From Alphaproteobacteria bacterium (GTDB lineage: Bacteria > Pseudomonadota > Alphaproteobacteria > UBA828): a stretch of DNA of 64,000 nucleotides. Within the stretch, counting starts at the first letter, position 1. Each line of letters begins with the position of its first letter. The DNA is taken from the NCBI GenBank assembly GCA_965243375.1, contig CBDEUT010000009.1, positions 896,401-960,400 of the forward strand, in the 5' to 3' direction. Of this stretch, positions 3,799-19,199 are shown piece by piece. The translations under genes were made by a program, and so were the position numbers. Under the pieces are notes generated by a model. The model was not told the DNA's origin. It made no database searches and saw only the letters and a program-made list of their open reading frames with translations.

Positions 3799-4204
3799 AC
3801 GAGTGACGGAGGACGCCACCGACGCTTCGGTCGCGGTCGCGACGAGCGCGCACGGCGCACGGGTCTGGCCGGAAGCGGTGAAGGCGCGGATCGTGGAGGA
3901 GACGTTCGAGGAGGGAGCGACGGTGGCGGGGGTTGCCCGGCGTCACGGCCTCTCACGGACGCAGTTGAGCGGCTGGCGGCGCATGGCTCGGGACGGGCTT
4001 CTCGGCCCGGTCGCCGGCGCGGGCGACGATCCGTTCGGCCTGGTCCCGGTGACGGTGTCGGTCGCTGCTGAGCGGAACGGCGCGGCCTCGGTGCCCGCGG
4101 ATGGTATCGCGATCGAGATCGCCGACATCCGGGTGGTGGTGCCGCCGGACTTCGACGCGGGGCACCTGTCGCGCATCCTGGTCTGCGTTCGGGCCGCGCC
4201 ATGA
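3779..4204 (+). CDS. tnpA: IS66 accessory protein TnpA (orf1)
   Basis: 141 aa with the ...ARIVEETFEEGATVAGVARRHGLSRTQLSGWRR HTH typical of IS66 TnpA; stop overlaps the tnpB start. Confidence 0.85.
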   Translation: MTDTLHERVTEDATDASVAVATSAHGARVWPEAVKARIVEETFEEGATVAGVARRHGLSRTQLSGWRRMARDGLLGPVAGAGDDPFGLVPVTVSVAAERNGAASVPADGIAIEIADIRVVVPPDFDAGHLSRILVCVRAAP

Positions 4205-4554
4205 TCCTGACCGGGGAGAAGATCCGGGTCTGGCTGGCGACCCGCCCCGTCGACTTCCGAAAGGGACATGACGGGCTGTCGGCGGTGGTGCAGACGGTGC
4301 TGGGTCACGACCCCTATAGCGGCGCGGTCTTCGCCTTCCGCTCCAAGCGAGGCGACAGAATGAAGATCCTGGTCTGGGACCGCACCGGGCTGGTCATGGT
4401 CTACAAGCGCCTGGAGGGCGGCGGCTTCCAGTGGCCGCGCCCCTCGGACGGCGTGATCGGACTGTCGCCGGCGCAGTTCTCGGCGTTGTTCGAAGGTCTC
4501 GACTGGAAGGCGGTCCGGGCCGTGCGACGGCCTCGGCCGCGCCAGGCGGCCTGA
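4201..4554 (+). CDS. tnpB: IS66 TnpB (orf2)
   Basis: 117 aa, MILTGEKIRVWLATRPVDFRKGHDGLSAVV...VFAFRSKRGDRMKILVWDRTGL, canonical IS66 Orf2. Confidence 0.9.
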   Translation: MILTGEKIRVWLATRPVDFRKGHDGLSAVVQTVLGHDPYSGAVFAFRSKRGDRMKILVWDRTGLVMVYKRLEGGGFQWPRPSDGVIGLSPAQFSALFEGLDWKAVRAVRRPRPRQAA

Positions 4555-4700
4555 CCGCGCAGCTTGCCGTTTCACCGGGGAACGGTGTCCATCCCACCGT
4601 CTCCCCGGTGTCGCCAAGACGAGCTATCCGGCCCCGTTTACGGCGGGGCCGGAAGCATGTTCACCTTGCGTTACCTCATTGATTCTGCTAGAGGAATCCC

Positions 4701-6329
4701 ATGATAACCAGCATGGGAAGCGCCGTTCCCGTGAGTGATCTGCAACGCCGTCTGGCGGCCGTCGAAGCCCAACTTGCGAAGGAGCGTGCCGAGCGCAAGG
4801 CCGCCGAGGACGCGCTGGCTGTGTCCGAGCGGGCGCGCGAACGCCTGGAGCGGATCATCGCCTCGCTGAACCATGCCGTGTGGGGCGCGCGCTCGGAGAA
4901 GCGCCATGCCGATCAGGACCGGCTGCCGCTGTTCGAGGACATCGCGGTCGCCGAGGGGATGCTGGCGGAAGCCCAGGAGAAGGCCGACGCGGCGACCGGC
5001 AGGCAGCGGCGCAAGCCACAGCCGACCAATCGCAACCTCGGCCATCTGCCCAAGCACCTCGAACGCTTCGAGAAGGTGATCGAGCCGGAGAGCGCGGAGT
5101 GCCCTTGCGGCTGCGGCGAGATGGTGAAGGTCGGCGAGGACCGCACCGAGCGGCTCGACGTCGTGCCGGCGAAGTTGAGGGTGCTGGTGACGATCCGGCC
5201 GAAATACATCTGCCGCGCCTGCGAAGGCAAACAGAGCACCCAGGCGCCGGCGCCGGAATATCTGGTGCCGCGCGGCCTGCCGACCGAGGCGCTGGTGGCG
5301 CACACGCTGGTCGCCAAGTTCGCCGATCACCAACCGTTCTACCGTCAGAGCGAGGCATACCGTCGCGAGGGGATCGACCTCGACCGCACCATGCTGGGGA
5401 ACTGGGCGGGGCGCGGGATGCAGGTGCTGGCCCCGGTGATCGACCGGATGATCGAGCACCTCAAGGCGTCGGACGGTCTGTTCATGGACGAGACCACGGT
5501 GCCGGTGATGGCGCCGGGGACCGGCAAGACGCGCCTCGACTATCTGTGGGCGATCGCCCGCGATCAGCGCGGCTATGGCGGGGCCGACCCGCCGATCGTG
5601 GTGTTCCACCACTCGCGCCATCGAAGTGCGAAGGTCGCTCTTGAGTTGATGCGGGGCTACACCGGCGGCGGCCCGCTGCACGTGGACGGCTACAGGGTGT
5701 ACGACGCGCTCGGCGATCCGAAGCAGACGGTCAGCCCATGGGTGCTTGCCTACTGCTGGGTCCACTGGCGGAGACGCTTCGTCGACTTCCAGCGCGGCAC
5801 GGCCTCGCCCGTGTGCGAGGAAATCCTCGAACGGATCGCGGCGCTGTACCGGATCGAGGCCATGGTGCGCGGCCACCCGCCGGAGCTTCGGCTGAAGGCG
5901 CGGCAGGAGTTGTCGGCACCGATCGTCGAGGCCATGCGGCCCTGGCTTGAGGCCCAGCTCGACCGTCTGTCCAGCGCGTCCGAACTCGCCAAGCACATCC
6001 GATATGCCCTCAAGCGCTGGGACGGCCTGTGCCGGTTCCTCCATGACGGGCGTATCGAGATGGACACCAACCCCATCGAGAACCTCATCCGCCCGGTGAA
6101 GCTCACAAAGAAAAACGCGCTCTTCGCCGGCAGCGACGACGGCGCCAGGACATGGGCGCGGTGTGCCAGCCTGATCGGCACCTGCAAGCTCAACGGCATC
6201 AATCCGCAGGTCTACCTGACCGACACCCTGCGCCGGATCGTCGACATGCACCCCGTGTCACGCATCGACGAGCTCATGCCCTGGAACTTCGCTCCGACAA
6301 TCCCGGGCGTCACCCGTCAACAAGGGTGA
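4701..6329 (+). CDS. tnpC: IS66-family transposase TnpC
   Basis: 542 aa; N-terminal leucine zipper/coiled coil, CPCGCG...CRAC zinc finger, DETT DDE core, C-terminal conserved region of IS66 TnpC. Confidence 0.9.
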   Translation: MITSMGSAVPVSDLQRRLAAVEAQLAKERAERKAAEDALAVSERARERLERIIASLNHAVWGARSEKRHADQDRLPLFEDIAVAEGMLAEAQEKADAATGRQRRKPQPTNRNLGHLPKHLERFEKVIEPESAECPCGCGEMVKVGEDRTERLDVVPAKLRVLVTIRPKYICRACEGKQSTQAPAPEYLVPRGLPTEALVAHTLVAKFADHQPFYRQSEAYRREGIDLDRTMLGNWAGRGMQVLAPVIDRMIEHLKASDGLFMDETTVPVMAPGTGKTRLDYLWAIARDQRGYGGADPPIVVFHHSRHRSAKVALELMRGYTGGGPLHVDGYRVYDALGDPKQTVSPWVLAYCWVHWRRRFVDFQRGTASPVCEEILERIAALYRIEAMVRGHPPELRLKARQELSAPIVEAMRPWLEAQLDRLSSASELAKHIRYALKRWDGLCRFLHDGRIEMDTNPIENLIRPVKLTKKNALFAGSDDGARTWARCASLIGTCKLNGINPQVYLTDTLRRIVDMHPVSRIDELMPWNFAPTIPGVTRQQG

Positions 6330-6394
6330 CGGCGCGGCGCTTACAGATAAACGGCGACGTCGCCCAACAGTTGATGCGTTGACGGGAGAGGAAC

Positions 6395-7717
6395 ATGAAG
6401 CGTCCCAAGATCAAGCGGCGCGAGCGCGACACGATCATCCAGGCCTTGCGTGCAGGCGTCGTCCCCAAGCTGGGCCTGCGGCACATCCAAGTCGGGCGGG
6501 CGCGAGAGACCACCGAAATGGTCCGAGATGTCGAACGGATCGGCGAAGGGGGCGCCTCCATCCGCTTCGTGATTGGAGAGTATGGATCGGGCAAGACGTT
6601 CTTCCTCAATCTCGTTCGGCTCATTGCCTTGGAGAAGGGACTGGTCGTGCTTTCGGCGGACTTGGCGCCCGACCGACGCATCCATGCCACGGGCGGGCAA
6701 GCCCGTTCGCTGTATGCGGAGCTCACGCGAAATGCCTCGACCCGCACGAAACCGGAGGGCGGCGCGCTCGCCAGCGTGGTGGAGAGGTTCGTCACCCAGG
6801 CGGTCCGCGAGGCGGACGCCTCCGAGCGAACAGCGGATGCCGTGATCCGAGACAAGCTGGACCATCTCGAGGAGCTGACGGGCGGCTACGACTTCGCCAC
6901 GGTCATCGCCAGGTATTGGGAAGGGCACGAGACGGGTGACGACGAGCTGAAGTCGAATGCGCTGCGCTGGCTCAGGGCCGAGTTCGCGACCAGGACGGAT
7001 GCGCGCAAGGCGCTCGGCGTTCGCACGATCATCGATGACTCCAGCGTCTACGATCACCTGAAGCTCCTGTCCGCATTCGTGCGCGAGGCGGGCTACGGCG
7101 GATTGCTGGTGGAGCTCGATGAACTCGTAAACCTCTACAAGCTCACCAACAGCCAGGCACGTAACGCCAACTATGAACAGATTCTCCGCATCCTGAACGA
7201 CGTTCTCCAAGGCAGTGCCGCGCATCTCGGCTTCATGCTGGGCGGCACCCCGGAGTTTCTCATGGACACGCGGCGGGGCCTCTACAGCTACGAAGCGCTC
7301 CAGTCGCGGCTCGCGGAGAACACCTTCGCACGAGACGGACTGGTCGATCTGTCCGGGCCGGTCATGCGTCTTTCCGGCCTGACGAAGGAAGATTTGTTCG
7401 TGCTGTTGGCCAACGTCAGGCGCGTGTTTCTGGGAGACGAGACGGGTGCCGCGCCGGACGATGCCCTGAAGGCGTTCATGGCGCACTGCTCGCAGCGGAT
7501 CGGCGACGTCTATTTCCGGACGCCGAGAACCACGGTCACCGCCTTCGTGAACATGCTCTCGGTCATCGAGCAGAACCCGGGGACGGCATGGCAGGACCTC
7601 GTCGACGATGTTGAGATCGTGGCGGATGGCGGCGATGACTTGAGCGACATCATCGACAACGAGGCAGCGAAGAGTGGGCAGGAGGCTGACGATGACCTCA
7701 CCAGCTTCCGCCTCTGA
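6395..7717 (+). CDS. P-loop ATPase (Shango SngB-like)
   Basis: 440 aa; Walker A GEYGSGKT near residue 60, Walker B-like LLVELDEL; RBS GGGAGAGG 5 nt upstream; 12 nt downstream of the reconstructed pre-insertion stop of the TerB gene. Confidence 0.8.
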   Translation: MKRPKIKRRERDTIIQALRAGVVPKLGLRHIQVGRARETTEMVRDVERIGEGGASIRFVIGEYGSGKTFFLNLVRLIALEKGLVVLSADLAPDRRIHATGGQARSLYAELTRNASTRTKPEGGALASVVERFVTQAVREADASERTADAVIRDKLDHLEELTGGYDFATVIARYWEGHETGDDELKSNALRWLRAEFATRTDARKALGVRTIIDDSSVYDHLKLLSAFVREAGYGGLLVELDELVNLYKLTNSQARNANYEQILRILNDVLQGSAAHLGFMLGGTPEFLMDTRRGLYSYEALQSRLAENTFARDGLVDLSGPVMRLSGLTKEDLFVLLANVRRVFLGDETGAAPDDALKAFMAHCSQRIGDVYFRTPRTTVTAFVNMLSVIEQNPGTAWQDLVDDVEIVADGGDDLSDIIDNEAAKSGQEADDDLTSFRL

Positions 7718-9944
7718 TCAGCAATCCCGAGCCTTCGATCTTCTGGCGGAGCCGATCCGACGCTGGATCTGGCAAATGAAGTGGACTGCGCTTCGAGACA
7801 TTCAGGAGCGCGCGATCCCTTACCTGATCGACGGCGATGACGACCTCATCATTGCGGCCGCGACCGCCGGGGGAAAGACGGAGGCGGCGTTCCTGCCGCT
7901 GATTTCGAGGGCCCTCACGACCGGAAGTGGCGAGGGCTTCGACCTGGTCTATGTCGGGCCCCTTCGGGCGCTCATCAACGATCAGTTCTGGCGGCTAGAA
8001 GAGCTGTGTGCGACGCTGGAGATACCGGTCCACCCCTGGCACGGCGACATCTCGCAGGCCGTGAAGGCGCGCGCCAGAAAGAACCCGCGCGGCGTCCTGC
8101 TCATCACGCCCGAATCGCTCGAAGCGATGTTCCTCCTGCGCAGCGCGGAGATACCCCGCCTCTTCGCGGACACCCAAGCCATCGTGATCGACGAGCTTCA
8201 TGCTTTGCTGGATTCCGAGCGGGGCGTTCATCTGCGCTCCCTGCTGACCCGGCTCGAACTCGCGGTCGGCCGTCGCATTCGGCGCGTCGGGTTGTCGGCG
8301 ACTCTGGGAGACATGGCGCTGGCCAATGCCTATCTGCGCCCTGAGGCGCCGGAGAAGGTGGGGCAACTGGTCAGCTCCGACGAGCAGGAGCTGCGTGTTC
8401 AGTTGCGCGCCTACATCGCCGGCCGACGCACAGAGCACCCTAGCCCAGAAGAAGCCGAGTCGAACGGTGCCGATATGCAGGATTCATCTGCGGCACGGGC
8501 CGTTGGCGAGCATATCTTCGATAAGCTTCGGGGAAGCAACAATCTTGTCTTTGCAGGGTCCCGGGGCAACGTCGAGCTCTATGCCGATCTCTTGCGCCGA
8601 ATGTGCGAGGAGAGACGTCTTCCGAACGAGTTCTTCCCTCATCACGCCAGCCTGTCTAGGGAGCATCGCGGCTTCGTGGAGAAGCGCCTCAAGGACGGCA
8701 ATCTGCCGGTCACTTCAATTTGCACGTCCACCCTGGAACTCGGGATCGACATCGGCAACGTGGTATGCGTCGGACAAATTGGCGCGCCATGGTCGGTCGC
8801 GGGACTCAAGCAAAGACTGGGGCGGTCAGGGCGGCGGGACGGCCAACCTTCCGTGCTCCGCATGTACGCCATTGAACCGGAGACCGACGCCGACTCGCAT
8901 CCCATCGACACGTTTCACCTAGGCCTGGTGCGCTCGATTGCCATGGTCGAACTGTTGGTCGAGAGTTGGTGCGAGCCGCCGAGACGGGAGGCGCTCCATC
9001 TCTCGACGTTGACACACCAGATCCTATCTGTGATCGCGGAACGGGGCGGGGCATCGGCGAAGCGGCTCTTTTCGACTCTTTGTGACCGCGGTCCGTTTCG
9101 GACAGTCGATTCAGCGCTATTTGATCGGCTCTTACGCCAGCTTGGCGACCCCGACATCGCACTAATCGAACAGGCGTCGGACGGTACGCTTCTGCTTGGC
9201 CGCGAAGGCGAGCGTGTCGTCGAGCACTACAGTTTCTACGCGGTCTTTCATACACCGCAGGAATACCGCGTCGTCCACGATACGAAGACCCTCGGAACGA
9301 TCCCCGTCGATATGCCGCTGACCCCGGACATGACAATCATATTCGTCGGTCGACGGTGGCGCGTTCTCGAGGTGCACGACAAGGAAAGAGTTATCGAAGT
9401 GACGCCCGACTATGCCGGCAAGCCGCCGCGCTTCGGAGGTGATGCAGGCGACGTACATGAGGTCGTCGTACGCCGCATGCGCGACGTGCTGCTCGCCGAT
9501 ATCGTGCCGCCCTATCTCGACAATACGGCTGCAGAAGTCCTTCGCTTTGCCAGAGCCGCCTATCGGCGGTCCGGCCTCGATGACGTACCCATTCGACCGC
9601 TCGGCGAAGATCGACATCTTCTCGCCCTATGGACTGGAACAGTCGGCACAGTTTCTTTGGCGCTTGTGCTGACGTGTCTTGGCTATCGTGTCGGCACTTA
9701 CGATGGCATTCTGGATGTGACATCACCGCGTTCGTGCACGAGAGGCCTCTCTTCACAGCTTGGGGACATCGCAACTGGAGAACTCGACTTGCCCGACCTC
9801 ATACGAGGCCGAGCAGGCGCACTGATCAACGAGCAGTTCCACCACTATCTCGGAGACGATCTATTGCTTTCAGATGCACTATCGAGGCGGTTGGACCTGA
9901 ATGCAGTACCAGGGATCGCCCAAAGATTGTGCTCACGGTTGTGA
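7692..9944 (+). CDS. DEAD/DEAH-box SF2 helicase (Shango SngC-like)
   Basis: Motif I AATAGGKTEAAF, Ia VGPLRALINDQ, II VIDELHAL, III SAT, VI QRLGRSGRR; start chosen at the ATG at 7692 with a perfect AGGAGG RBS 7 nt upstream (the ORF track starts at 7674); overlaps the upstream ATPase gene by 26 nt. Confidence 0.8.
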   Translation: MTSPASASDQQSRAFDLLAEPIRRWIWQMKWTALRDIQERAIPYLIDGDDDLIIAAATAGGKTEAAFLPLISRALTTGSGEGFDLVYVGPLRALINDQFWRLEELCATLEIPVHPWHGDISQAVKARARKNPRGVLLITPESLEAMFLLRSAEIPRLFADTQAIVIDELHALLDSERGVHLRSLLTRLELAVGRRIRRVGLSATLGDMALANAYLRPEAPEKVGQLVSSDEQELRVQLRAYIAGRRTEHPSPEEAESNGADMQDSSAARAVGEHIFDKLRGSNNLVFAGSRGNVELYADLLRRMCEERRLPNEFFPHHASLSREHRGFVEKRLKDGNLPVTSICTSTLELGIDIGNVVCVGQIGAPWSVAGLKQRLGRSGRRDGQPSVLRMYAIEPETDADSHPIDTFHLGLVRSIAMVELLVESWCEPPRREALHLSTLTHQILSVIAERGGASAKRLFSTLCDRGPFRTVDSALFDRLLRQLGDPDIALIEQASDGTLLLGREGERVVEHYSFYAVFHTPQEYRVVHDTKTLGTIPVDMPLTPDMTIIFVGRRWRVLEVHDKERVIEVTPDYAGKPPRFGGDAGDVHEVVVRRMRDVLLADIVPPYLDNTAAEVLRFARAAYRRSGLDDVPIRPLGEDRHLLALWTGTVGTVSLALVLTCLGYRVGTYDGILDVTSPRSCTRGLSSQLGDIATGELDLPDLIRGRAGALINEQFHHYLGDDLLLSDALSRRLDLNAVPGIAQRLCSRL

Positions 9945-9976
9945 TAAGTGAGCCACTTGACGATATCTGCGGTCAC

Positions 9977-10010
9977 GCACTGGTTCCAGTGCCACATTTC
10001 CTTTTTTTTA
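9977..10010 (+). terminator. candidate intrinsic terminator after the helicase gene
   Basis: Hairpin GCACTGG-TTC-CCAGTGC at 9977-9992, followed after 8 nt by a T8 run (10001-10009); spacing is atypically long. Confidence 0.35.
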
Positions 10011-10249
10011 TACTCATGGAGATGAGATTGACACAGAGACCTACAGGCTGCGAAACGACGAGGCTGTCAAAGCACTTCCTGCTTATCCGTGATTCTCATC
10101 CAGCGATGAGGGTTTTGTAGCGCATGGGGCGGTGCACGCCGCGTTTCGGCTGCTTGCGCGTCAGATCGGCGAACCAGCGATCGATCTGATTGACACTCGG
10201 TTCCGTCGAAAAGCGCAGCTATCGCCCCGCCCCAGTAATCGTATGGAAG

Positions 10250-10640
10250 CACGGAGACAAGACGGTTACCGGCGGCGCGGCGCATTTCCTTCAAGCTCGT
10301 CCCGGCGCTTCTCTGTTTGCGCAGCAAGCCGGGGCCCGGCAACCCCTGGGTGTTTCCCGGCCGCGTGCTCGGTACCCGTCTGCGCACACTGAACGCGTCG
10401 TGGCAGGTCGTTCGCAAGGAGGCCGGGCTCGAAGACGTTCGCCTGCATGACTTGCGCCACTCCTTCGCCTCGCGGGCGCTCGCCCTCGGGGAGAGTCTGC
10501 CGATGATCGGGAAACTGCTCGGTCACACGAAGGTGCAGACGACCGCGCGCTACGCACACCTTGGGAGGCACTCAGTGAAGGTCGCTGCCGTTCGGATACC
10601 CGCTTACCGAGTTGCAGCACTTACAGACTCAGCCTTTGCA
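10250..10640 (+). pseudogene. 3' fragment of a tyrosine integrase gene (remnant)
   Basis: Encodes only the C-terminal catalytic segment ...PWVFPG...LEDVRLHDLRHSFASRALALGESLPMIGKLLGHTKVQTTARYAHL, about 70% identical to the intact integrase at 12764-13945, then diverges; no N-terminal domain. Confidence 0.6.
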
Positions 10641-10874
10641 CAACGACAGCAACTGGGCAGAGTCACGCGGGCGCTCCGCCGCGGGGAGTCCCCATTCTGC
10701 ACCGAGCTGCGGAATGTTTCCTGACCGGCCACATCCATAGACTACCGGACACTCCCAACAGGAACACCACCGCAGCAATCCATCCGTTGTCACGCTTCCA
10801 CTTGGACCTAGTACCATTGACTCGATGGAATTACTATACGCGTAGAAGCCATTCAGATCAGGTACGGTTCCGCT

Positions 10875-12353
10875 ATGCCCCAGCAAGTCTATCGGATTCG
10901 CAGCGCCAAACATCTTATTGGCGAATATCATGAATTCCAAAAACAGGAAATCTACTTCGCCAAACCGGACGAACTCAACGATCCTATGGAAGGGCTTCGG
11001 AACATAGTTTGGAGAGGCGATGCGATCATGTGGGAAAACTTCTTTCGACACTACATATCGTGCCTGAATCACACTGTAGTCTTGGTCAAAGTGCTTGGAA
11101 ATAACACTATCGTACAAGCAGAACAAATCCCAATTTGCGGACTGGCAGACGAACATGAAACCCCAATGACGGCTGCAATTCTTGAGGAACTATGTTCCAG
11201 TGTTTTCGATAAATGCAAGCTCCACGCGTTGATACAAGATTTGGCAAATACGAATCACGCGGTCAGACGTGATGAACTGCTTGTCTACCTCAAACACATT
11301 CACTACATCACACTCGGAGAAATACAAAACATCCATATACGTCACAGCATGGCTTCAGGAGAAGCTCGACCCACTCCTCTTCAAGACCCGTTGGAGCTGC
11401 TTCAAGACCCGTTTGAGCTGCCCGAAAACATTCCCACATTGATTCAACGGCTCTATGAAGAGCAACCGGAAATCGCTCGGCCAGCATTGGCTGCTCTATT
11501 TTCTGTTTCGAATCTATTGTTCGATAACATGAATCTGATGCACAAGTACAGCAGTTCTCGACAGAACGATGGAAGCGAAACCCGCGCAAAGCAAAACCGC
11601 GAGTTCATTGTGCTCGATTTTCCGAGAAAATACCTTACTCGACTACCACGTATTCTATATCCTGATTGGTATGTCTCCTGCTTTCTTGAGGACTGTCGAA
11701 ATTCTTCCATATGGGGGCACTATGGAGATAATCATAAGGGGGCCTGTTTGATTTTCGATGCAAATGAAGACTCCGGACAGCTTGGACTGGAATTGAGGCG
11801 CATTACTGGTTTTTCTGGTCATCGTGACAAAAGCTTCGGCGAGATGACAACGAGATCGACATGGAATTACTCTTTGATGACGCTTTATAGTGTAGAATAT
11901 GAGGAAGAGTTGAGGGAGCTAGATTTTTTTCGTTCTATAGGTGTACTTCCCACAGGTCGACTTCTGTCCAAATGGTACACCGACCACGCGGGTAACCGCA
12001 GTATCTGCAGCGACCACATCGGGTCCGGTAACGAGGACTCGTGGCGTGAAGCGTATTGGGAGAAGTTCCATCAAGACATAGTCATAAAATCGCACGACTG
12101 GTCCTATGAGAAGGAAATGCGAATGATCCTAAGCAGTTCGATCTCGGACTTTACGGCAAAGACGTCGCGCAAGCTGACCTATCGATTTTCAAGCTTGAGA
12201 GGAGTTATTTTCGGGATCAGTATGACAGACAATGATAAGATGAAAATTATTGATATCGTGTTTGAAAAATGTCGCAACGAGAACAGGAATGATTTGAATT
12301 TTTTCAGGCATATTACAACCACGAGACGAAAGCTATCGAGAGGCATAGGTTGA
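10875..12353 (+). CDS. DUF2971-like protein (candidate standalone defence/Abi-type gene) in an AT-rich islet
   Basis: 492 aa; N-terminal motif VYRIRSAKHLIGEYHEFQKQEIYFAKPDELNDPMEG resembles the DUF2971 signature (LYKYRS...FS.P..FNDPFE) recalled from memory; gene and flanks (about 10640-12360) visibly much lower GC than surroundings. Confidence 0.65.
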   Translation: MPQQVYRIRSAKHLIGEYHEFQKQEIYFAKPDELNDPMEGLRNIVWRGDAIMWENFFRHYISCLNHTVVLVKVLGNNTIVQAEQIPICGLADEHETPMTAAILEELCSSVFDKCKLHALIQDLANTNHAVRRDELLVYLKHIHYITLGEIQNIHIRHSMASGEARPTPLQDPLELLQDPFELPENIPTLIQRLYEEQPEIARPALAALFSVSNLLFDNMNLMHKYSSSRQNDGSETRAKQNREFIVLDFPRKYLTRLPRILYPDWYVSCFLEDCRNSSIWGHYGDNHKGACLIFDANEDSGQLGLELRRITGFSGHRDKSFGEMTTRSTWNYSLMTLYSVEYEEELRELDFFRSIGVLPTGRLLSKWYTDHAGNRSICSDHIGSGNEDSWREAYWEKFHQDIVIKSHDWSYEKEMRMILSSSISDFTAKTSRKLTYRFSSLRGVIFGISMTDNDKMKIIDIVFEKCRNENRNDLNFFRHITTTRRKLSRGIG

Positions 12354-12763
12354 ACATTAAGATACCACAGGAATGACGCGGAAGTATGTTTTCGTCGAGA
12401 TCAGCTAAGGGGCTGTCAGGTGATTAGCGTCTCACTACATGTCATGCACTTTGCGAACCGCACCGCACCACACATGCCGATGCTGCACAATGCGTCGCAT
12501 GATCCAGATTGAACGCCGAACCTGTTCTCCGCTGCGCACGCTTCGATTAGGGGAGGTCTCCGGTCGGCTTGCGGTCAGCCAGGACGCCCGCTCACTCGGT
12601 CGGCCATGCGCTGGCAAACGATTTCCCGAATCCTTCCTTTGCAGAACGCGACAAGGCGGGAGAGTCTTTGCTGAATCTCATGCGGGTCGGCATTAGGATC
12701 GGGCTGCATCCCCGCCACGGCCGAACCCGGAGAGCTGTTTGTGCAGGTCGTCGACCAGGGTCC

Positions 12764-13945
12764 CTACAGGATGTCGCTGGCAATGCTGTCTGCGATCCGC
12801 TCCGCCGCCTCGTGAACCGAGTCCTGCGCAAGATGGGCGTAGCGCGCCGTCGTCTCGATATCGTGGTGTCCAAGCAGCTTGCCGATCACCGGAAGGGTCT
12901 CGCCGAGTGCGAGCGCCCGGGAGGCAAAGCTGTGTCGGAGGTCGTGCAGCCGCACGTCCTCCAGATCGGCACCGGCCCGGACAATGCGCCAGGCACGGTC
13001 GAGGCCGCCGCTGAGGCGTCCGTCGCGGTCGCCGCCCGGAAACACCCAGGGGCCGTCGTTCCGACGCGGCAGCGTCTCCAGAAGCCCCACCGCCGCCGAC
13101 GGAAGCTGGACCGTGCGGGGACCAGACTTGGCGTCGGCGAGGCGGAGCTCGCCGGCTTCGGGGTCGACGTCCGTCCAGCGCAACGTGAGGATCTCGCTCT
13201 TGCGGCAGCCGGTCAGCATCAGCAGGTGGATCGCCGTCACGGCAAGCGGCGAAACGGCGCCGCTGTCGAGGGCCTCGTGCAGCGCCTGTCCGAGGCGGTC
13301 GAACTCGGCATCGGTCAGGAAGCGCTCGCGGGAGCGCTCGGGATACTTCTCCACCGAGCGGCAGGGATTGAAGCCCTCGGGCGCCAGGCCCCAGCCCTCG
13401 GCCAGACGGTACATGTGCGACAGGACCTTGACCGCCCGGTTCGCCGTGACCGGGCGGTCCGACAGTTCGCGGTGCAGCTCGACGACGTGGCTTCGTTCCA
13501 CCGCCTCCAGGGGCAGCCTGCCGAGGGCCGGCAGGATGTGGCGGCGGAGCACACCACTGACGCTCGTCTGCGTCCTCGGTTTCAGCCTCGCCTCGACATG
13601 CTCCTCCAGGTAGCGCTCGGCAAGATCGGCCACGGTGGGCCCGCCGTTGAGCCTGGCGGCGAGCGGCAGGGGCACCGGGTCCTCGCACGCCCTGATGCGC
13701 GCGATGATGAGCGCCGCCCGCTGGCGGGCCTCCTCGGCATTGAGCACGCCGTGGCGGCCGACCGTCACCCGCTTCGGCAGCCTGTTGCCCGTCCGCTCCC
13801 TGGCCTGGGCGACGTAGACCTTGCCGCCGGACGGATAGACCCGGATCCCGAAGCCGGTCAGGTCCCGGTCCCAGAACACGGTGTCGCGGTCGACTTCCAG
13901 CGCTGCCACGGTGCGGTTGGAGAGGGTCTTCTTCTGCACTGCCAT
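12764..13945 (-). CDS. int: tyrosine recombinase / phage-type integrase (copy 1)
   Basis: 393 aa from the ATG with GAGGAGG RBS (MAVQKKTLSNRTVAALEV...); N-terminal arm-binding (DUF4102-like) region, C-terminal HDLRHSFAS...TTARYAHL with catalytic Tyr. Confidence 0.9.
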   Translation of the reverse strand: MAVQKKTLSNRTVAALEVDRDTVFWDRDLTGFGIRVYPSGGKVYVAQARERTGNRLPKRVTVGRHGVLNAEEARQRAALIIARIRACEDPVPLPLAARLNGGPTVADLAERYLEEHVEARLKPRTQTSVSGVLRRHILPALGRLPLEAVERSHVVELHRELSDRPVTANRAVKVLSHMYRLAEGWGLAPEGFNPCRSVEKYPERSRERFLTDAEFDRLGQALHEALDSGAVSPLAVTAIHLLMLTGCRKSEILTLRWTDVDPEAGELRLADAKSGPRTVQLPSAAVGLLETLPRRNDGPWVFPGGDRDGRLSGGLDRAWRIVRAGADLEDVRLHDLRHSFASRALALGETLPVIGKLLGHHDIETTARYAHLAQDSVHEAAERIADSIASDIL

Positions 13946-13956
13946 GTTGCGCCTCC

Positions 13957-15141
13957 TCACGCCGCCTCGGCACGGCCGCGCAGGACGTGGGCGGCGATGC
14001 TGTCGCCGGTCCGCGCGGCGGCGGCCTTCTCCGCGTCGCGCACCAGGTGGGCGTACTTGGCGGTGGTGCCAACCGTGACATGACCCAGCAGCCTACCGAT
14101 CACCGGCAGGCCCTCGCCAAGGGCCAGCGCCCGCGAGGCGTAGCTATGGCGCAGGTCGTGGACGCGCACATCGTGGAGTCCGGTCTCTCTCCTGATCCTC
14201 CGCCAGTACGAGGAAAGACAGGCCAGTCGGGAACCGGGCTTCGTGCCCCGCAGTACCCAGGGAACTCCCTCGGCCCGCTTGATGCCGTCCAGCACTTTCA
14301 GCACCGGCCCGGTCAGCGGCACCATGCGCGGCCCGGTCTTCGAATCGCGCAAGCGCAAGACGCGCGCCGTGCGGTCGACGTCGTCCCATTTCAGGGTGAG
14401 GATCTCGTCCGTGCGGCAGCCGGTGAGCATCAGCAGGCGGATCGCGGCGATCGCCGAGGGCACCATCGAGCCCTCGGATTCGAACATCTTCAGCGCCGTC
14501 CCCAGCCGCCGGAACTCCTCCGGAGTCAGGAAGCGCTCGCGGGACTTCCCTCGGTAATGGCGGACATGCCGGCTCGGCTTGCGGCCGGGCGGTACCATCC
14601 CCCAGCTCTCGCCCAACGACAAGATCTTCGACAGCACCCACATCGCCTGGTTGGCCGCCGCCGGCGTCGCCCGCAGCTTGTGGTGGAGCGCCGTGAGGTC
14701 TTCGGACCCGACATCCTCGAGCGCCTTCGTCCCCAGGGCCGGGAGGATATGGTTCCGGATCGACACCCGGTAGTTCCTGGCTGTGCTCGGCTTGCAGCGC
14801 GTCTCGACGTAGTTCTTGAGCACGAGTTCGGACAGGTCGGCGACGGTGGGCGGTGGCGGCGCTTTCGACGGCTTGGGGTCCTCGCCCCGCTTGATGCGGT
14901 CGATGACGACGGCGGCCTCGCGCCGGCGGTCCTCGACGGTCTTGGTGCCGACCCGTCCGAGCGTCACCCGCTTCAGGCCCGCCGGTCCCCTGGACTGAAC
15001 GATGTAGAGCTTGCGTCCGGTGGCATGCACCCGCACGCCGAAGCCGGCAAGGTCGCGGTCCCAGAAGATCGTGTCCTTGCCGCCGGCCTTGAGCCCGTCC
15101 ACAATCCGCTTGGTCAGTCTGAGGGTGCTGCGCTTCGGCAT
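13957..15141 (-). CDS. int: tyrosine recombinase / phage-type integrase (copy 2, tandem paralogue)
   Basis: 394 aa from MPKRSTLRLTKRIVDG (RBS GGGGAGAGAAACC); same domain layout, VHDLRHSYASRAL...TAKYAHL; stop 12 nt upstream of the copy-1 start. Confidence 0.9.
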   Translation of the reverse strand: MPKRSTLRLTKRIVDGLKAGGKDTIFWDRDLAGFGVRVHATGRKLYIVQSRGPAGLKRVTLGRVGTKTVEDRRREAAVVIDRIKRGEDPKPSKAPPPPTVADLSELVLKNYVETRCKPSTARNYRVSIRNHILPALGTKALEDVGSEDLTALHHKLRATPAAANQAMWVLSKILSLGESWGMVPPGRKPSRHVRHYRGKSRERFLTPEEFRRLGTALKMFESEGSMVPSAIAAIRLLMLTGCRTDEILTLKWDDVDRTARVLRLRDSKTGPRMVPLTGPVLKVLDGIKRAEGVPWVLRGTKPGSRLACLSSYWRRIRRETGLHDVRVHDLRHSYASRALALGEGLPVIGRLLGHVTVGTTAKYAHLVRDAEKAAAARTGDSIAAHVLRGRAEAA

Positions 15142-15264
15142 GGTTTCTCTCCCCGAAGGCGTTCGTCCAAAGGATGGCGAAGATGAGGAAGCCGATGGAA
15201 ACTCCGGGCTCCATCTCTCCACCCCTGGAGCCGCTGGCCTCTTCCTCCCTTTCTATCACCGCGT

Positions 15265-15420
15265 GAGAAAGCGTTCGGTCACGCAGTGATGAGAGTGGTG
15301 GATTCAACGATTGAGTGTTCGCTTCCAGTCCTTGCGGAGGGGCCGCAACCAGACGTCCTTTTTCGGCTGGGCTCGCTTCGTATGCCTGTCATAGCGTCCT
15401 CTTCCCTGGGTGGTGCCGAC
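15265..15420 (+). repeat. left 156-bp terminal inverted repeat
   Basis: GAGAAAGCGTTCGGTCACGCAGTGATGAGAGTGGTGGATTCAACG...GGTGGTGCCGAC; direct comparison with the reverse complement of 18862-19017. Confidence 0.85.
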
Positions 15421-15505
15421 GCAGTGATGGAATGGGCTGAGGTCATTTTCGGCACCCTCAACAAGACACTGGTAACGCCAACGACGATTCGATATCGTCG
15501 CGCGC

Positions 15506-18100
15506 ATGGCGATGCGCGACGAGGATTTCGGGGCGATCCCGACGCTGACCGAGGCGGACGGCGGGCTCTGGTCGCCGCCCATGGCGACGCCGGAGCCGCG
15601 CGACTGGCGGTCTCTGTACGAGCAGGCGCAGGCGCGAGCGGAGACGGAGCGGGCTCGGGCGGACGCAGCGGAAGCGCGCGTCGCAGAGTTGCTTGTGGCG
15701 GAGAGGACTGCCCGTTCCCGAGCGGGCCAACTGAACACACAACTCGACAAGAACCGGAACAAGCTCAAGGCGGCCAACGAGGAGGTGAAGGAGGTCCGGC
15801 GCGCGGCCAAGGACGCGCTGTTCCACCAGTCGGAAGCAGCGCGGCTGGAGAAGCTGCTTTCGGAATCCGGTGTCGATACGCGCAAGCGCAGCACGATCGT
15901 GTCGCTGCGCATGGAAGTCTTCGAACTTCGCGAAGCCTTGAAGACGCCGAAGCCCGGCGACGCCGCGATCGAGGAACTGCGCGGGGAAGTCGATACCCTG
16001 ACCCGGGAGAACGCCCGGCTGAACAAGGCGCTGGAGCGGTCGCAGGGGCAGAACGACGAGATCGCGGCGCTGCGCAGGAAGGTCGAGGCGCTCCGTCGCC
16101 GGTTGAAACGAGCGGCAAAGCCTTCGCCGGCTGGCAGAGCGAGCGCCCAGCTTCGCAAGGCGCTGGAACGCGCACGCAAGCAGAAGGACACGATCAGGGC
16201 GTTGCGCGGCGAAGTCGGCACGCTCAGCCGGGAGACCCGTCGGCTGAACCGGGAGGCCCGTCGGCTGCGCCGCCAGTTGGAACCGTTGCCGGACCTCAAG
16301 AAGACTGCCCGCAAGATGACCGCCGAGGTCGGTTTTTTGCGCCAGTGTCTGGCCGCCTTCTGCGACCAGAGGGACCGCATCCAGGTGCTGGAGAACCGCA
16401 TCTTCCATCTGAACGTGGCCGTGAGGACGGCGGCCATCAAGAACGAGAAGCTGGAGGCCGAGCTTGCCGAGCGTCCCCTGCTGTCCGCGATCTTCAAGGT
16501 AGTGCGCGCTCGGAACAGGACTATCGAATCGCTGCACGAGGAGATCGCCCGGCAGCGCAAGGCGAACGGCCGGCAGGACAAGAAGATCGCCCGGCTGCGC
16601 GAGACGAACGCTGCACTGGGCAAGAAGATAAAGGCGCTTCGGGCTCTGACCGCGAGCCTGGAAGGCCGGATCGTCCAACTCCGCTCGTCCAGGGCGGTCC
16701 TGTCGAAGGCCGTCTTCGGGGGCAAGAGCGAGAAGCAGGACAAGCCGCGCTCGGAGCGCAAGCGCGGCCAGCAGCGCGGCGCGCCCGGCCACGGCCGCAC
16801 CCCGCGGCCCGCGCTCAAGGAGAAGGAGGAACGGCGGGAGCCGCCGCCGGACGCGCTGATCTGCTCGTGCTGCGGCAAGCCCTATATCGCCAACGGCGAG
16901 AATGCCTCGTCGGTCATCGAGATCGCGGTCAAGGCCCATATCCGCAGGATCGTGCGCCCGCGCTACCGCCGGAGCTGCGAGTGCGCGTCCTCGGCGCTGG
17001 AGGCGATCGCGCCCCCGCCGGCTCGGCTGTTCCCCAGGACGCCCTACGGGGTCAGCGTCTGGGCGCGCATCCTCTACGAGCGCTTCGCCTGCCACAGGCC
17101 CCTGCGCCGGGTTGCGGCATGGATGGCGGACCAGGGACTGCCGATCGCGCCGGGGACGATGGCGAGCAGCGTGCGCCGCTTCCTGCCGCTGTTCGCGCCG
17201 CTCGCCGAGGCGATCCTCGCCCACCAGAACGGGATGGCGGTGCGCCACGGAGACGAGACCGGCTGGCGCATCCAGGCGCTGGGCGAGACCGGCGGTTCGC
17301 GGCGCGCGTGGTTGTGGATCTCGGTCGGCAAGGATGCCGTCTATTACCGCATCGACCCCTCGCGCAGCGCCGAGGCCGCGATGAAGCTGTTCGGTTCGGT
17401 CAAGGGCACGGTGTTCCTGGTCTGCGACCGCTACGTCGCCTACGTGAAGATGGCGCGCGAGCTCGACGGCAAGGTGATCCTGTGCTGGTGCTGGATCCAC
17501 CAGAGGCGCGACTTCATCGAGTGCGCCGCCGGCCAGGTGAAGCTGAGGCAATGGTGCGAGGGATGGATCGAGCGGTTCGCGTCGGTCTTCCGACTGAACA
17601 AGGAGCGGCTGAAGCATTACGATCCCGCTCTCGCTCTCGAACGCCAGTCACCGGCGTTCGACGCGGCACATGCCCCGCTGAAGAAGGCCGTCGAGGATCT
17701 GTTCGTACAGGGCAAAGCGGAGCTGGCCGGGCTGCCGGACAAGGCGCGCCAGGGCAAGGCGCTGCGCTCGCTGCTCAAGCATCGCGAGGGGCTGAGCGTC
17801 TTCGTCGACAATCCCCAGGTCCCCATGGACAACAACCTCCCGGAGCGCGAGTTCCGGAAGGCCGTTATCGGGCGCCGGTTATGCTTCGGTTCGGACAGCG
17901 AGGACGGCGCCGACCTCACGTCGACGATGTACTCGGTCTTCGGCACGCTCTCGATGAACGGCATCGTCGTCCTGCGCTGGCTGGAGGCGTGGCTCGAAGC
18001 CTGCGCGGAGAACGGTGGCCAGCCACCGGACGACCTGTCGCCGTGGCTGCCCTGGACGATGACCGAGGAGCGCAGGCGCGAGTTCATGACGCCGGAATGA
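15506..18100 (+). CDS. IS66-family transposase (single-ORF type) with about 430-aa N-terminal coiled coil
   Basis: 864 aa; long heptad-like repeats (LRGEVDTLTRENARLNKALER... / LRGEVGTLSRETRRLNREARRL...); CSCCGKP...RRSCECA zinc finger; GDETGWRI catalytic region alignable to DETTVPV of the IS66 TnpC at 4701-6329. Confidence 0.8.
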   Translation: MAMRDEDFGAIPTLTEADGGLWSPPMATPEPRDWRSLYEQAQARAETERARADAAEARVAELLVAERTARSRAGQLNTQLDKNRNKLKAANEEVKEVRRAAKDALFHQSEAARLEKLLSESGVDTRKRSTIVSLRMEVFELREALKTPKPGDAAIEELRGEVDTLTRENARLNKALERSQGQNDEIAALRRKVEALRRRLKRAAKPSPAGRASAQLRKALERARKQKDTIRALRGEVGTLSRETRRLNREARRLRRQLEPLPDLKKTARKMTAEVGFLRQCLAAFCDQRDRIQVLENRIFHLNVAVRTAAIKNEKLEAELAERPLLSAIFKVVRARNRTIESLHEEIARQRKANGRQDKKIARLRETNAALGKKIKALRALTASLEGRIVQLRSSRAVLSKAVFGGKSEKQDKPRSERKRGQQRGAPGHGRTPRPALKEKEERREPPPDALICSCCGKPYIANGENASSVIEIAVKAHIRRIVRPRYRRSCECASSALEAIAPPPARLFPRTPYGVSVWARILYERFACHRPLRRVAAWMADQGLPIAPGTMASSVRRFLPLFAPLAEAILAHQNGMAVRHGDETGWRIQALGETGGSRRAWLWISVGKDAVYYRIDPSRSAEAAMKLFGSVKGTVFLVCDRYVAYVKMARELDGKVILCWCWIHQRRDFIECAAGQVKLRQWCEGWIERFASVFRLNKERLKHYDPALALERQSPAFDAAHAPLKKAVEDLFVQGKAELAGLPDKARQGKALRSLLKHREGLSVFVDNPQVPMDNNLPEREFRKAVIGRRLCFGSDSEDGADLTSTMYSVFGTLSMNGIVVLRWLEAWLEACAENGGQPPDDLSPWLPWTMTEERRREFMTPE

Positions 18101-18978
18101 CCGGCGTCGTCGAGTGCCGCTATTACGGGCGCGACTTCACCGCCGACGAGATGGCGCTGCTGCGCGCCCTGATCGCCGCCGATCCGCCGCCGACCCGCGC
18201 CAACCTGGCGAGGGAGTTCTGCCGGCGTACCCGCTGGCTCAAGCCCGACGGCGGCCTCAAGGACATGATGGCCAAGGTGACCATGCTCGCCATGCACCGC
18301 GACGGCGTGATCGAGCTGCCGCCGCCGAGGGGCAAACAGGGCCGGCCCAAGCCCATCGTCTTCGGACCCGACACCGAGCCGCCGCTGTTCCCCGCGCCGA
18401 CCGCCCTCGACGAGGTTCGGCCCCTCGACTTCCGCACCGTCGTGCGCAACACCCGCGAAGGGAAGCTCTGGAACGAGTTCGTCGCCCGCTATCACTATCT
18501 CGGATACAAGCCCCTGGTCGGCGCCCAGATGCGCTACGCCGTCCATGATCGGAACGGCTGGCCGCTGGCCATGCTCGGCTTCTCCACCGCCGCCTGGAAG
18601 CTCGCCCCGCGCGACGACTTCATCGGATGGACGCCCGAGCTGCGCGAGAAGAACCTGCCGCTGGTGGTCGACAATCCGCGCTTCCTGATCCTGCCGTGGA
18701 TCGAGATCCCCAACCTCGGCTCGCACATCCTTGCCATCGTGCGTCGGCGCCTGCCCGCCGACTGGACCGAGCGCTACAACACCACGCCCGTGCTCATCGA
18801 GACCTTCGTCGAGACCCCGCGCTACACCGGCGCCGTCTACAAGGCCTCGGGCTGGACGCGGGTCGGCACCACCCAGGGAAGAGGACGCCATGACAGGCAT
18901 ACGAAGCGAGCCCAGCCGAAAAAGGACGTCTGGTTGCGGCCCCTCCGCAAGGACTGGAAGCGAACACTCAATCGTTGA
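18097..18978 (+). CDS. DUF4338-like accessory protein, translationally coupled to the transposase
   Basis: 294 aa; ATG overlaps the transposase stop (ATGA at 18097-18100); ARYHYLGYKPLVGAQMRYAVHD...NPRFLILPWIE... resembles DUF4338 (the DruA domain) from memory; C-terminus runs into the right TIR. Confidence 0.6.
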   Translation: MTGVVECRYYGRDFTADEMALLRALIAADPPPTRANLAREFCRRTRWLKPDGGLKDMMAKVTMLAMHRDGVIELPPPRGKQGRPKPIVFGPDTEPPLFPAPTALDEVRPLDFRTVVRNTREGKLWNEFVARYHYLGYKPLVGAQMRYAVHDRNGWPLAMLGFSTAAWKLAPRDDFIGWTPELREKNLPLVVDNPRFLILPWIEIPNLGSHILAIVRRRLPADWTERYNTTPVLIETFVETPRYTGAVYKASGWTRVGTTQGRGRHDRHTKRAQPKKDVWLRPLRKDWKRTLNR

Positions 18979-19017
18979 ATCCACCACTCTCATCACTGCG
19001 TGACCGAACGCTTTCTC
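18862..19017 (-). repeat. right 156-bp terminal inverted repeat (carries the last about 39 codons of the DUF4338-like gene)
   Basis: Reverse complement matches 15265-15420. Confidence 0.85.
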
Positions 19018-19199
19018 CCGTTCGACGCACCCTCCGAAAATTGCCGCGAATTCCAGTCATCAAACCGTATGCGAGCGGCATCAAATCGGGGTCGATTGAA
19101 GGCGATGTCTGGCGGCAAGTCAAGGGCCGCGAAACCGGGGAGGATGTAAAATCGTCAACGATTACAACTGTCTATCATGCTCCCGGCGTCAAACGGCGG

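Follow-up and report, generated by a model that had tools for sequence, protein, structure and literature searches.

A low-GC long-form DUF2971 gene with a predicted ADP-ribosyltransferase fold beside a Shango locus, in a copy that is probably impaired

We analysed a 64,000-nucleotide stretch of an alphaproteobacterial contig (GenBank assembly GCA_965243375.1, contig CBDEUT010000009.1, positions 896,401 to 960,400 of the forward strand; referred to below as the window), in which an islet of low guanine-plus-cytosine (GC) content carries a single open reading frame (ORF) of the DUF2971 family between integrase remains and directly downstream of a Shango locus (Table 1). The product of this ORF starts MPQQVYRIRSAKHLIGEYHEFQKQEIYFAKPDELNDPMEG and contains the motif (YRxRS...ELNDPMEG) that an earlier note on this DNA had quoted in assigning it to DUF2971. 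The PF11185 (DUF2971) search proposed there as a check gave a match above the gathering threshold (28.6 bits for a cut-off of 22; residues 280–417, profile positions 2–89 of 89), which was the single Pfam match at E ≤ 1, and four hidden Markov models of the PADLOC family PDC-S31 matched in three separate stretches (best E = 1.8e-23), so the family assignment stands. The DarT family PF14487 was not detected in the same Pfam scan, nor was any DarT match obtained from PADLOC, and the NCBIfam scan of the protein gave no match. A comparison of the family profile with the sequences of the Protein Data Bank (PDB) yielded only a designed helical repeat (E = 5.7). The exact protein was absent from the contig index that we searched. 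Word-indexed matching returned 481 homologues, mostly of 465–495 amino acids and, where named, annotated as ‘DUF2971 domain-containing protein’. At E ≤ 1e-3 an exhaustive profile search retrieved 8,064 clusters, of which 968 remained at E ≤ 1e-30; the top 150 were nearly all 460–495 amino acids long.

Table 1. Positions of the DUF2971 gene, its parts and the surrounding features, numbered from the first nucleotide of the window
Feature	Position	Strand	Basis and remarks
Long-form DUF2971 / PDC-S31 ORF as read, 492 amino acids, ATG start	10875–12353	+	DarT-like ADP-ribosyltransferase fold predicted
N-terminal core segment, residues 1–46: strand beta-1 with R7 and R9 (10893–10901), N35-D-P-M-E-G40 loop	10875–11012	+	PDC-S31 positions 6–48
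Internal helical insertion of ~215 amino acids (residues ~50–260)	11022–11654	+	Predicted helices; no Pfam or PADLOC match
C-terminal core, residues 262–473: W280, Y283 (11721–11723), H287, E412-x-E414 (12108–12116), then R416	11658–12293	+	PF11185, PDC-S31, conservation
In-frame 21-bp tandem duplication (LQDPLEL/LQDPFEL) in disordered insertion loop	11379–11420	+	Window copy only
T-run with 1-nt deletion, GATTTGAA in the window and GATTTTGAA in relatives; shifts the reading frame	12293–12295	+	
Native 3' end, shifted out of frame; ancestral TGA stop at 12374–12376	12296–12376	+	Conserved beta-hairpin in the intact homologue
2,058-bp shared stretch: gene and ~275 bp on each side	10597–12651	+	blastn, 93% identity to the copy in locus L001
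P4-type tyrosine integrase, internal fragment, both ends missing	10333–10590	+	Pfam Phage_integrase; abuts the shared stretch
Integrase 1, 398 amino acids; Arm-DNA-bind_3, SAM-like, Phage_integrase	12764–13960	−	Pfam
Integrase 2, 421 amino acids; same architecture, in tandem with integrase 1	13957–15222	−	Pfam
sngA (TerB_N/TerB/TerB_C)	1246–3699	+	PADLOC SngA E = 3e-85; last 10 codons at 6353–6382
IS66 element (tnpA, tnpB, tnpC)	3700–6344		27-nt terminal inverted repeats 3700–3726 / 6318–6344
sngB (BrxC/D-type ATPase)	6395–7717	+	PADLOC SngB E = 2.1e-174; Pfam BrxC_BrxD E = 3.6e-151
sngC (DEAD-box helicase)	7674–9944	+	PADLOC SngC E = 8.6e-262; Pfam DEAD, Helicase_C

GC content in 400-nt windows was 0.44–0.49 across approximately 10800–12600 and 0.60–0.72 on both flanks, and that of the ORF was 0.454 compared to 0.689 ± 0.042 in 1479-nt windows outside the islet (z = −5.6), the minimum of all 64 kb being located at 10901, within the ORF. 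This sliding-window measurement, which had also been suggested as a check, confirmed the islet; its proposed extent of 1.7 kb (10640–12360) was not borne out in full, since at 100-nt resolution the low-GC stretch spanned approximately 10800–12400 and coincided with the ORF. GC at the three codon positions of the ORF was 0.50, 0.37 and 0.49, respectively, whereas adjacent host-type genes had 0.82–0.89 at the third position. A comparison in 73 related loci (L003–L082) showed lower GC in the long-form DUF2971 gene than in its flanks in 70 cases (mean gap 9.7 points; Wilcoxon p = 1.6e-13), whatever the GC of the host; regression of gene GC on flank GC gave a slope of 0.70. Low GC is a trait of long-form DUF2971 genes as a whole and composition alone therefore has no power to date their acquisition.

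Stronger evidence of transfer was obtained at the DNA level. The shared stretch in Table 1 has its 93%-identical counterpart in locus L001, a 3.96-Mb contig of approximately 0.7 GC, where the gene encodes the intact homologue P0001 and is placed between HU-like genes amid insertion-sequence (IS) and integrase debris. The low GC of the ORF, this identity in a different context, and the IS66, putative IS630 and integrase debris around the gene indicate horizontal transfer, and the islet is a single horizontally acquired gene. Horizontal acquisition as claimed in the earlier note is thus upheld, whereas its use of low GC as a mark of recency is not. We saw no terminal inverted repeats bounding the shared stretch.

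Scanning the protein in pieces revealed where the family signal resides. Residues 1–60 alone matched the PDC-S31 profile PDLC04990 at positions 6–48 of 259 (E = 8.2e-6), so the N-terminal motif is genuinely that of the family, and the isolated fragment 262–473 matched PF11185 with 30.3 bits (positions 2–89 of 89) and PDC-S31 at positions 66–143 and 175–236, whereas residues 47–262 (216 residues) matched nothing in Pfam or PADLOC when the pieces were scanned separately. Because the core is recognized in both halves and the residues between them are unmatched, the extra length of the protein is an internal insertion and not a C-terminal extension: the architecture is an ordinary DUF2971 core interrupted by a helical insertion of approximately 215 residues. 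It had been supposed that the C-terminal 250 residues or so contain no recognizable domain and may be a novel effector or sensor extension; PF11185 matches exactly in that part, which also contains Y283 and E412-x-E414, and the unrecognized part is the insertion.

The structure of the protein was modelled with AlphaFold2 (AF2) on a 33-sequence alignment, and conservation was scored over 253 diverse relatives. The model reached a mean predicted local distance difference test score (pLDDT) of 84.1 and a predicted template modelling score (pTM) of 0.80, and an independent model of P0001 reached 86.2 and 0.82, respectively. Strands at 3–9, 25–27 and 44–46 are followed by an all-helical block at 50–260 (helices 50–77, 97–113, 116–124, 132–156, 167–175, 186–196, 198–230 and 237–260) and then by a strand-rich part at 265–480 that includes a long hairpin (302–339) and helices at 360–402. 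The modelled protein has the predicted fold of an ADP-ribosyltransferase (ART), closest to DarT (PDB 7yk3, 7omv, 7omu, 8baq) and to Tpt1/KptA (PDB 7yw4, 7yw2, 9ld3), with a SopF-like effector, TreX, CteC, scabin, heat-labile enterotoxin, RES toxin and poly(ADP-ribose) polymerases (PARPs) ranked later. A published analysis likewise predicts DUF2971 proteins to be ARTs akin to DarT and AbiGi, in which the helical inserts are unusually large (PMC12522546).

At least 95% of the 253 relatives share, among others, R7, R9, E20, Q24, N35, D36, P37, E39, W46, G48, D49, W53, N55, E134, W280, Y283, H287, G289, E412, E414 and R416. The window copy retains all residues at this level except for L21F. The putative active-site set, R7/R9 on beta-1, W280-x-x-Y283-x-x-x-H287 and E412-x-E414, is kept and agrees with the motif description given for DUF2971 (PMC12522546). 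Mapped by position, R7/R9 on the first strand are candidates for ART motif I, Y283 may correspond to the ‘strictly conserved tyrosine’ of motif II, and E412-x-E414, at the start of strand 414–420, would be the E-x-E of motif III, which in ARTs likewise opens a strand. The candidates thus have the secondary-structure positions expected of these motifs. A motif II of the S-T-S type was also considered and is not supported, as S277 and S278 are invariant in close relatives and below 85% conservation across the family. The insertion is weakly conserved (0.12–0.49 per 20-residue block), apart from conserved islands around E134/H143 and at 241–260.

The copy in the window departs from every homologue from codon 474 onward. 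In the DNA alignment with loci L001, L083 and L085 it alone has one T less in the T-run, by which its last 19 codons are out of frame, and the alternative frame yields FEFFQAYYNHETKAIERHRLNIKIPQE*, the C-terminus of P0001. In the P0001 model this native tail forms two strands (468–475 and 480–485) with pLDDT of 94–95, while in the model of the window protein pLDDT drops to 36–40 over the final 20 residues, so the frameshift is predicted to remove a conserved and ordered beta-hairpin. Since the last 19 residues are thereby replaced, the copy is probably weakened or inactive, barring a sequencing error in the homopolymer. A second change private to this copy, the 21-bp duplication, is missing from P0001 and the other homologues and lies where pLDDT is below 50 (residues 164–179); the seven residues that it adds are probably harmless. 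Two of the three closest relatives are independently interrupted by insertion sequences: in L083 the gene is split by IS1595 with an 8-bp overlap (12246–12253 in window coordinates; 9475–10404 in L083), and in L084 it is truncated by a Mu-like/rve transposase (9228–10724 of L084). Counting the frameshifted window copy, damage affects three of the four closest copies, which suggests that in these GC-rich hosts selection on the gene is relaxed or negative.

The gene lies between an integrase remnant and tandem integrases, as had been noted. The ORF containing the remnant (10317–10724, + strand) matches Pfam Phage_integrase at positions 89–168 only, and the fragment is 88% identical to an integrase fragment in L001 and to positions 766–895 of L084; two full-length integrase genes follow on the right. 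In L084 the same 3' fragment of the integrase lies 6.8 kb upstream of the gene in the same orientation, and its neighbourhood also contains an HU-like gene, a type I HsdR gene and two tandem integrases approximately 40% identical to the pair in the window. The window looks like an L084-like arrangement in which a loss of about 6.8 kb has brought the integrase fragment next to the gene, and in the alignment of L001, L083, L084 and L085 the junction 10591/10597 is unique to the window. Three loci begin to match at position 10597, for which reason it was considered as a recurrent mobile-element end; the idea was rejected, as L001, L083, L084 and L085 match each other further upstream. An imperfect 13-nt direct repeat, CCTTTGCA[C/G]AACG (10633 and 12636), has two copies only, comes with no excised or empty site for comparison and is unsupported as an att core. 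A P4-type integrase was present within 8 kb in 4 of 82 loci, so a general link of the gene to such integrases was also discarded; the association holds for the window, L001 and L084 only.

Some further observations were made on the surroundings of the gene. A 176-nt inverted repeat of 72% identity (10422–10597 and 12795–12970), made up of the integrase fragment and the 3' end of integrase 1, brackets the gene, and homologous recombination between its arms could cause inversion or deletion. HU-like (Bac_DNA_binding) genes recur beside the gene in the closest relatives (891–1166, 9216–9491 and 12045–12335 in L001; 7009–7290 in L084); two of the three copies in L001 flank the gene, and the window has lost its HU-like neighbour. 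A short frame between sngC and the integrase fragment (approximately 10130–10215, − strand; NQIDRWFADLTRKQPKRGVHR) resembles the C-terminus of IS630-family transposases and would represent further putative mobile-element debris. To the right of the integrases, a second IS66-family unit (15262–19020) is bounded by unusually long, 99%-identical inverted repeats of 159 nt (15262–15420 and 18862–19020) and encodes an 864-amino-acid transposase (15506–18100) with a long coiled-coil N-terminal region. Rfam detected nothing in 9900–12900 at E ≤ 1, and a scan for promoters and terminators gave no more than the shuffled expectation.

The defence-island setting that the earlier note gave for the family is corroborated here by the complete SngABC set of the Shango system (bioRxiv 10.1101/2022.05.11.491447; PMC10250203), which occupies one locus directly upstream of the islet (1246–9944). 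An IS66 element is inserted 10 codons ahead of the sngA stop, with an 8-bp target duplication (AGATAAAC at 3692–3699 and 6345–6352), and parts sngA from sngBC, which may affect Shango expression. GC over the Shango region is 0.58–0.64 against a background of approximately 0.70, indicating that the island extends beyond the islet flagged in the earlier note.

Elsewhere, the nearest neighbours of the long-form gene (126 ORFs in 63 loci) included Eco57I/type IIG (6), N6_Mtase (4), MmeI (3), type I restriction endonuclease (2) and AbiEii (2) genes. Long-form relatives occur in Proteobacteria, Poribacteria, Bacteroidota, Firmicutes and one haloarchaeal plasmid, and are carried by 13 plasmids; in an Arcobacter plasmid hsdM/S and hsdR enclose the gene, which also has a Fic gene beside it, and on pZZM405 of Zymomonas it adjoins a recombinase and a type I restriction-modification system. 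No tblastn match was found among 50,697 phage records. All-against-all BLAST of 593 neighbouring ORFs revealed no conserved partner or antitoxin, every cluster of neighbours being limited to at most 8 of the roughly 80 reference-genome loci; in particular, no ORF for a DarG macrodomain antitoxin exists in 10597–12760, and Macro is outside the 25 most frequent neighbour families. These results show that the gene moves on its own, with no partner conserved alongside it. In three Poribacteria loci (L019, L022 and L042), ORFs of 738–951 amino acids given by a simple ORF caller overlap the DUF2971 match and may be fusions to extra domains or read-through from crude ORF calling.

Taken together, the reading to which we give somewhat better than an even chance is that the gene is a long-form (460–495 amino acids) DUF2971 member encoding a single-gene abortive-infection ART, of which the copy in the window is probably impaired. 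By analogy with the validated relative Aristaios, one protein of this family would suffice for abortive infection. Once activated by an infecting phage, the enzyme would transfer ADP-ribose from nicotinamide adenine dinucleotide (NAD+) either to nucleic acid, the type of target that DarT modifies, or to a gene-expression component, and this modification would halt phage transcription and translation. Nucleic acid would be the most likely substrate because of the resemblance to DarT and Tpt1, and the internal helical insertion would be the likeliest cis-acting sensor or autoinhibitor because there is no antitoxin. The fully specified form of this proposal, in which the insertion of approximately 215 residues is a built-in phage sensor and autoinhibitor that replaces the DarTG antitoxin and makes the protein a self-regulated DarT-like nucleic-acid ART, we regard as doubtful.

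Several points weigh against this account. The role given to the insertion is purely one that we infer; the motif assignment depends on conservation and secondary-structure position, S277/S278 lack conservation across the family, and the motif I residue is an Arg here, whereas DUF2971 is placed in an H-Y-E clade in the literature. Only about 10–15% of the nearest neighbours, as a raw share, are recognizable defence genes. The frameshift, together with the insertion-sequence cuts in two of the three closest relatives, indicates that the lineage may be decaying. To our knowledge, no DUF2971 protein has a demonstrated biochemical activity. The target of Aristaios is unknown and no escape mutants of it are known (PMC11381338, PMC13064643, PMC12967558), and approximately 18% of DUF2971 proteins are predicted to be secreted effectors (PMC12522546).

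The alternatives differ in which part of this account they replace. The architecture as first drawn, with DUF2971 at the N-terminus and a novel effector or sensor domain of approximately 250 residues behind it, takes up the genuine N-terminal family motif and is nevertheless highly improbable, since the Pfam and PADLOC profiles match residues 262–473, the conserved Y283 and E412-x-E414 sit in the C-terminal half, and the AF2 model builds one fold from residues 1–46 and 262–480 with the insertion between them. The same fold might instead serve another chemistry, either NAD+ degradation (by an NADase or an NAD+ phosphorylase like the RES-domain toxins), with abortive infection brought about by NAD+ depletion instead of ADP-ribosylation of a target, or mere binding of NAD+ or a nucleotide; we consider these options, taken jointly, unlikely. 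That the window copy is fully functional, either because the missing T is an error of sequencing or assembly or because the changed tail of 19 residues is tolerated, is a possibility of some substance that we do not favour. The deletion falls within a T-run, a classic site of such errors, the shifted frame stops after just 19 codons and keeps F476-F477 by chance, and apart from L21F the remaining highly conserved residues are intact; on the other hand, the lost tail holds the conserved F474, Q478 and A479 and forms the confidently modelled two-strand hairpin of P0001, and the independent disruptions in L083 and L084 show a lineage that is being inactivated.

It is also conceivable, and in our estimate quite unlikely, that the gene has no part in phage defence and encodes a selfish toxin that stabilizes the island or a plasmid, or an effector secreted against other cells. 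Its relatives on 13 plasmids, its position among integrases and insertion sequences and the share of predicted effectors in the family would fit such a role. However, no conserved antitoxin or immunity partner, as usually required by addiction toxins and inter-bacterial effectors, accompanies this gene, no secretion-system genes are located nearby in the window, its neighbours belong to restriction-modification, Abi and Shango systems, and the family member Aristaios has a demonstrated antiphage phenotype (PMC11381338).

With the single-gene abortive-infection ART as the preferred reading, the window itself is of modest value: the gene is an ordinary member of a known, database-annotated family, correctly spotted in the earlier note, and what we add is a corrected domain map, its context (Shango, IS66 and integrase debris) and the warning that the copy is probably damaged. 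What is new is limited to the uncharacterized insertion that defines the long form, a large subfamily (about 970 clusters at 50% identity) with tightly constrained length, invariant catalytic-type residues and an unexplained internal domain. DUF2971 is very widespread, being present in 5,981 species (PMC12522546), with a phenotype for one short member only and a substrate for none. Should the insertion indeed have a sensing or autoinhibitory role, the safe carriage of a DarT-like toxin with no antitoxin would be accounted for, and the arrangement would constitute a new regulatory architecture for ART-based immunity.

Among the known systems with a similar predicted fold, the RNA 2'-phosphotransferase Tpt1/KptA has no sequence match to the window protein and differs from it in being a housekeeping RNA-repair enzyme of approximately 180–230 amino acids with other catalytic residues, whereas the window gene lies in a defence island. 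The predicted fold is also near that of the DNA ADP-ribosyltransferase toxin DarT of DarTG, but the protein gave no match to PF14487 and has no DarG neighbour. CmdTAC (Vassallo et al., Nature 2024) is reportedly an mRNA ADP-ribosyltransferase defence in which CmdT is the ART of an abortive infection that blocks phage protein synthesis. Blocked phage protein synthesis is the phenotype reported for Aristaios as well; unlike the window gene, which has no partners beside it, CmdT is said to require an antitoxin and a chaperone.

The closest comparisons are with single-gene systems. PDC-S31, a PADLOC single-gene phage-defence candidate for which we found no publication describing the family, shares with the window protein its single-gene organization and matches both the N-terminal motif and the C-terminal core; its profiles of 208–273 positions are contiguous, whereas the window protein matches them in three stretches, with its insertion falling between profile positions ~48 and 66. 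Aristaios, a DUF2971 protein of 316 amino acids encoded on the Lactococcus plasmid pUCCL641_199, confers single-gene abortive infection against Skunavirus (PMC11381338) and stops the phage from transcribing its genes and producing its proteins (PMC11381338, PMC13064643, PMC12967558). Its validation, together with the ART prediction for the family (PMC12522546), makes the statement in the earlier note that DUF2971 has no known mechanism outdated. The window protein differs from Aristaios in its length of 492 amino acids, with the unmatched helical insertion of approximately 215 residues, and in being encoded by a frameshifted copy; the measured phenotype is that of Aristaios. The two share membership of PF11185, from which their kinship is taken, as well as a partnerless single-gene organization, a predicted ART fold and a location in mobile DNA among defence genes.

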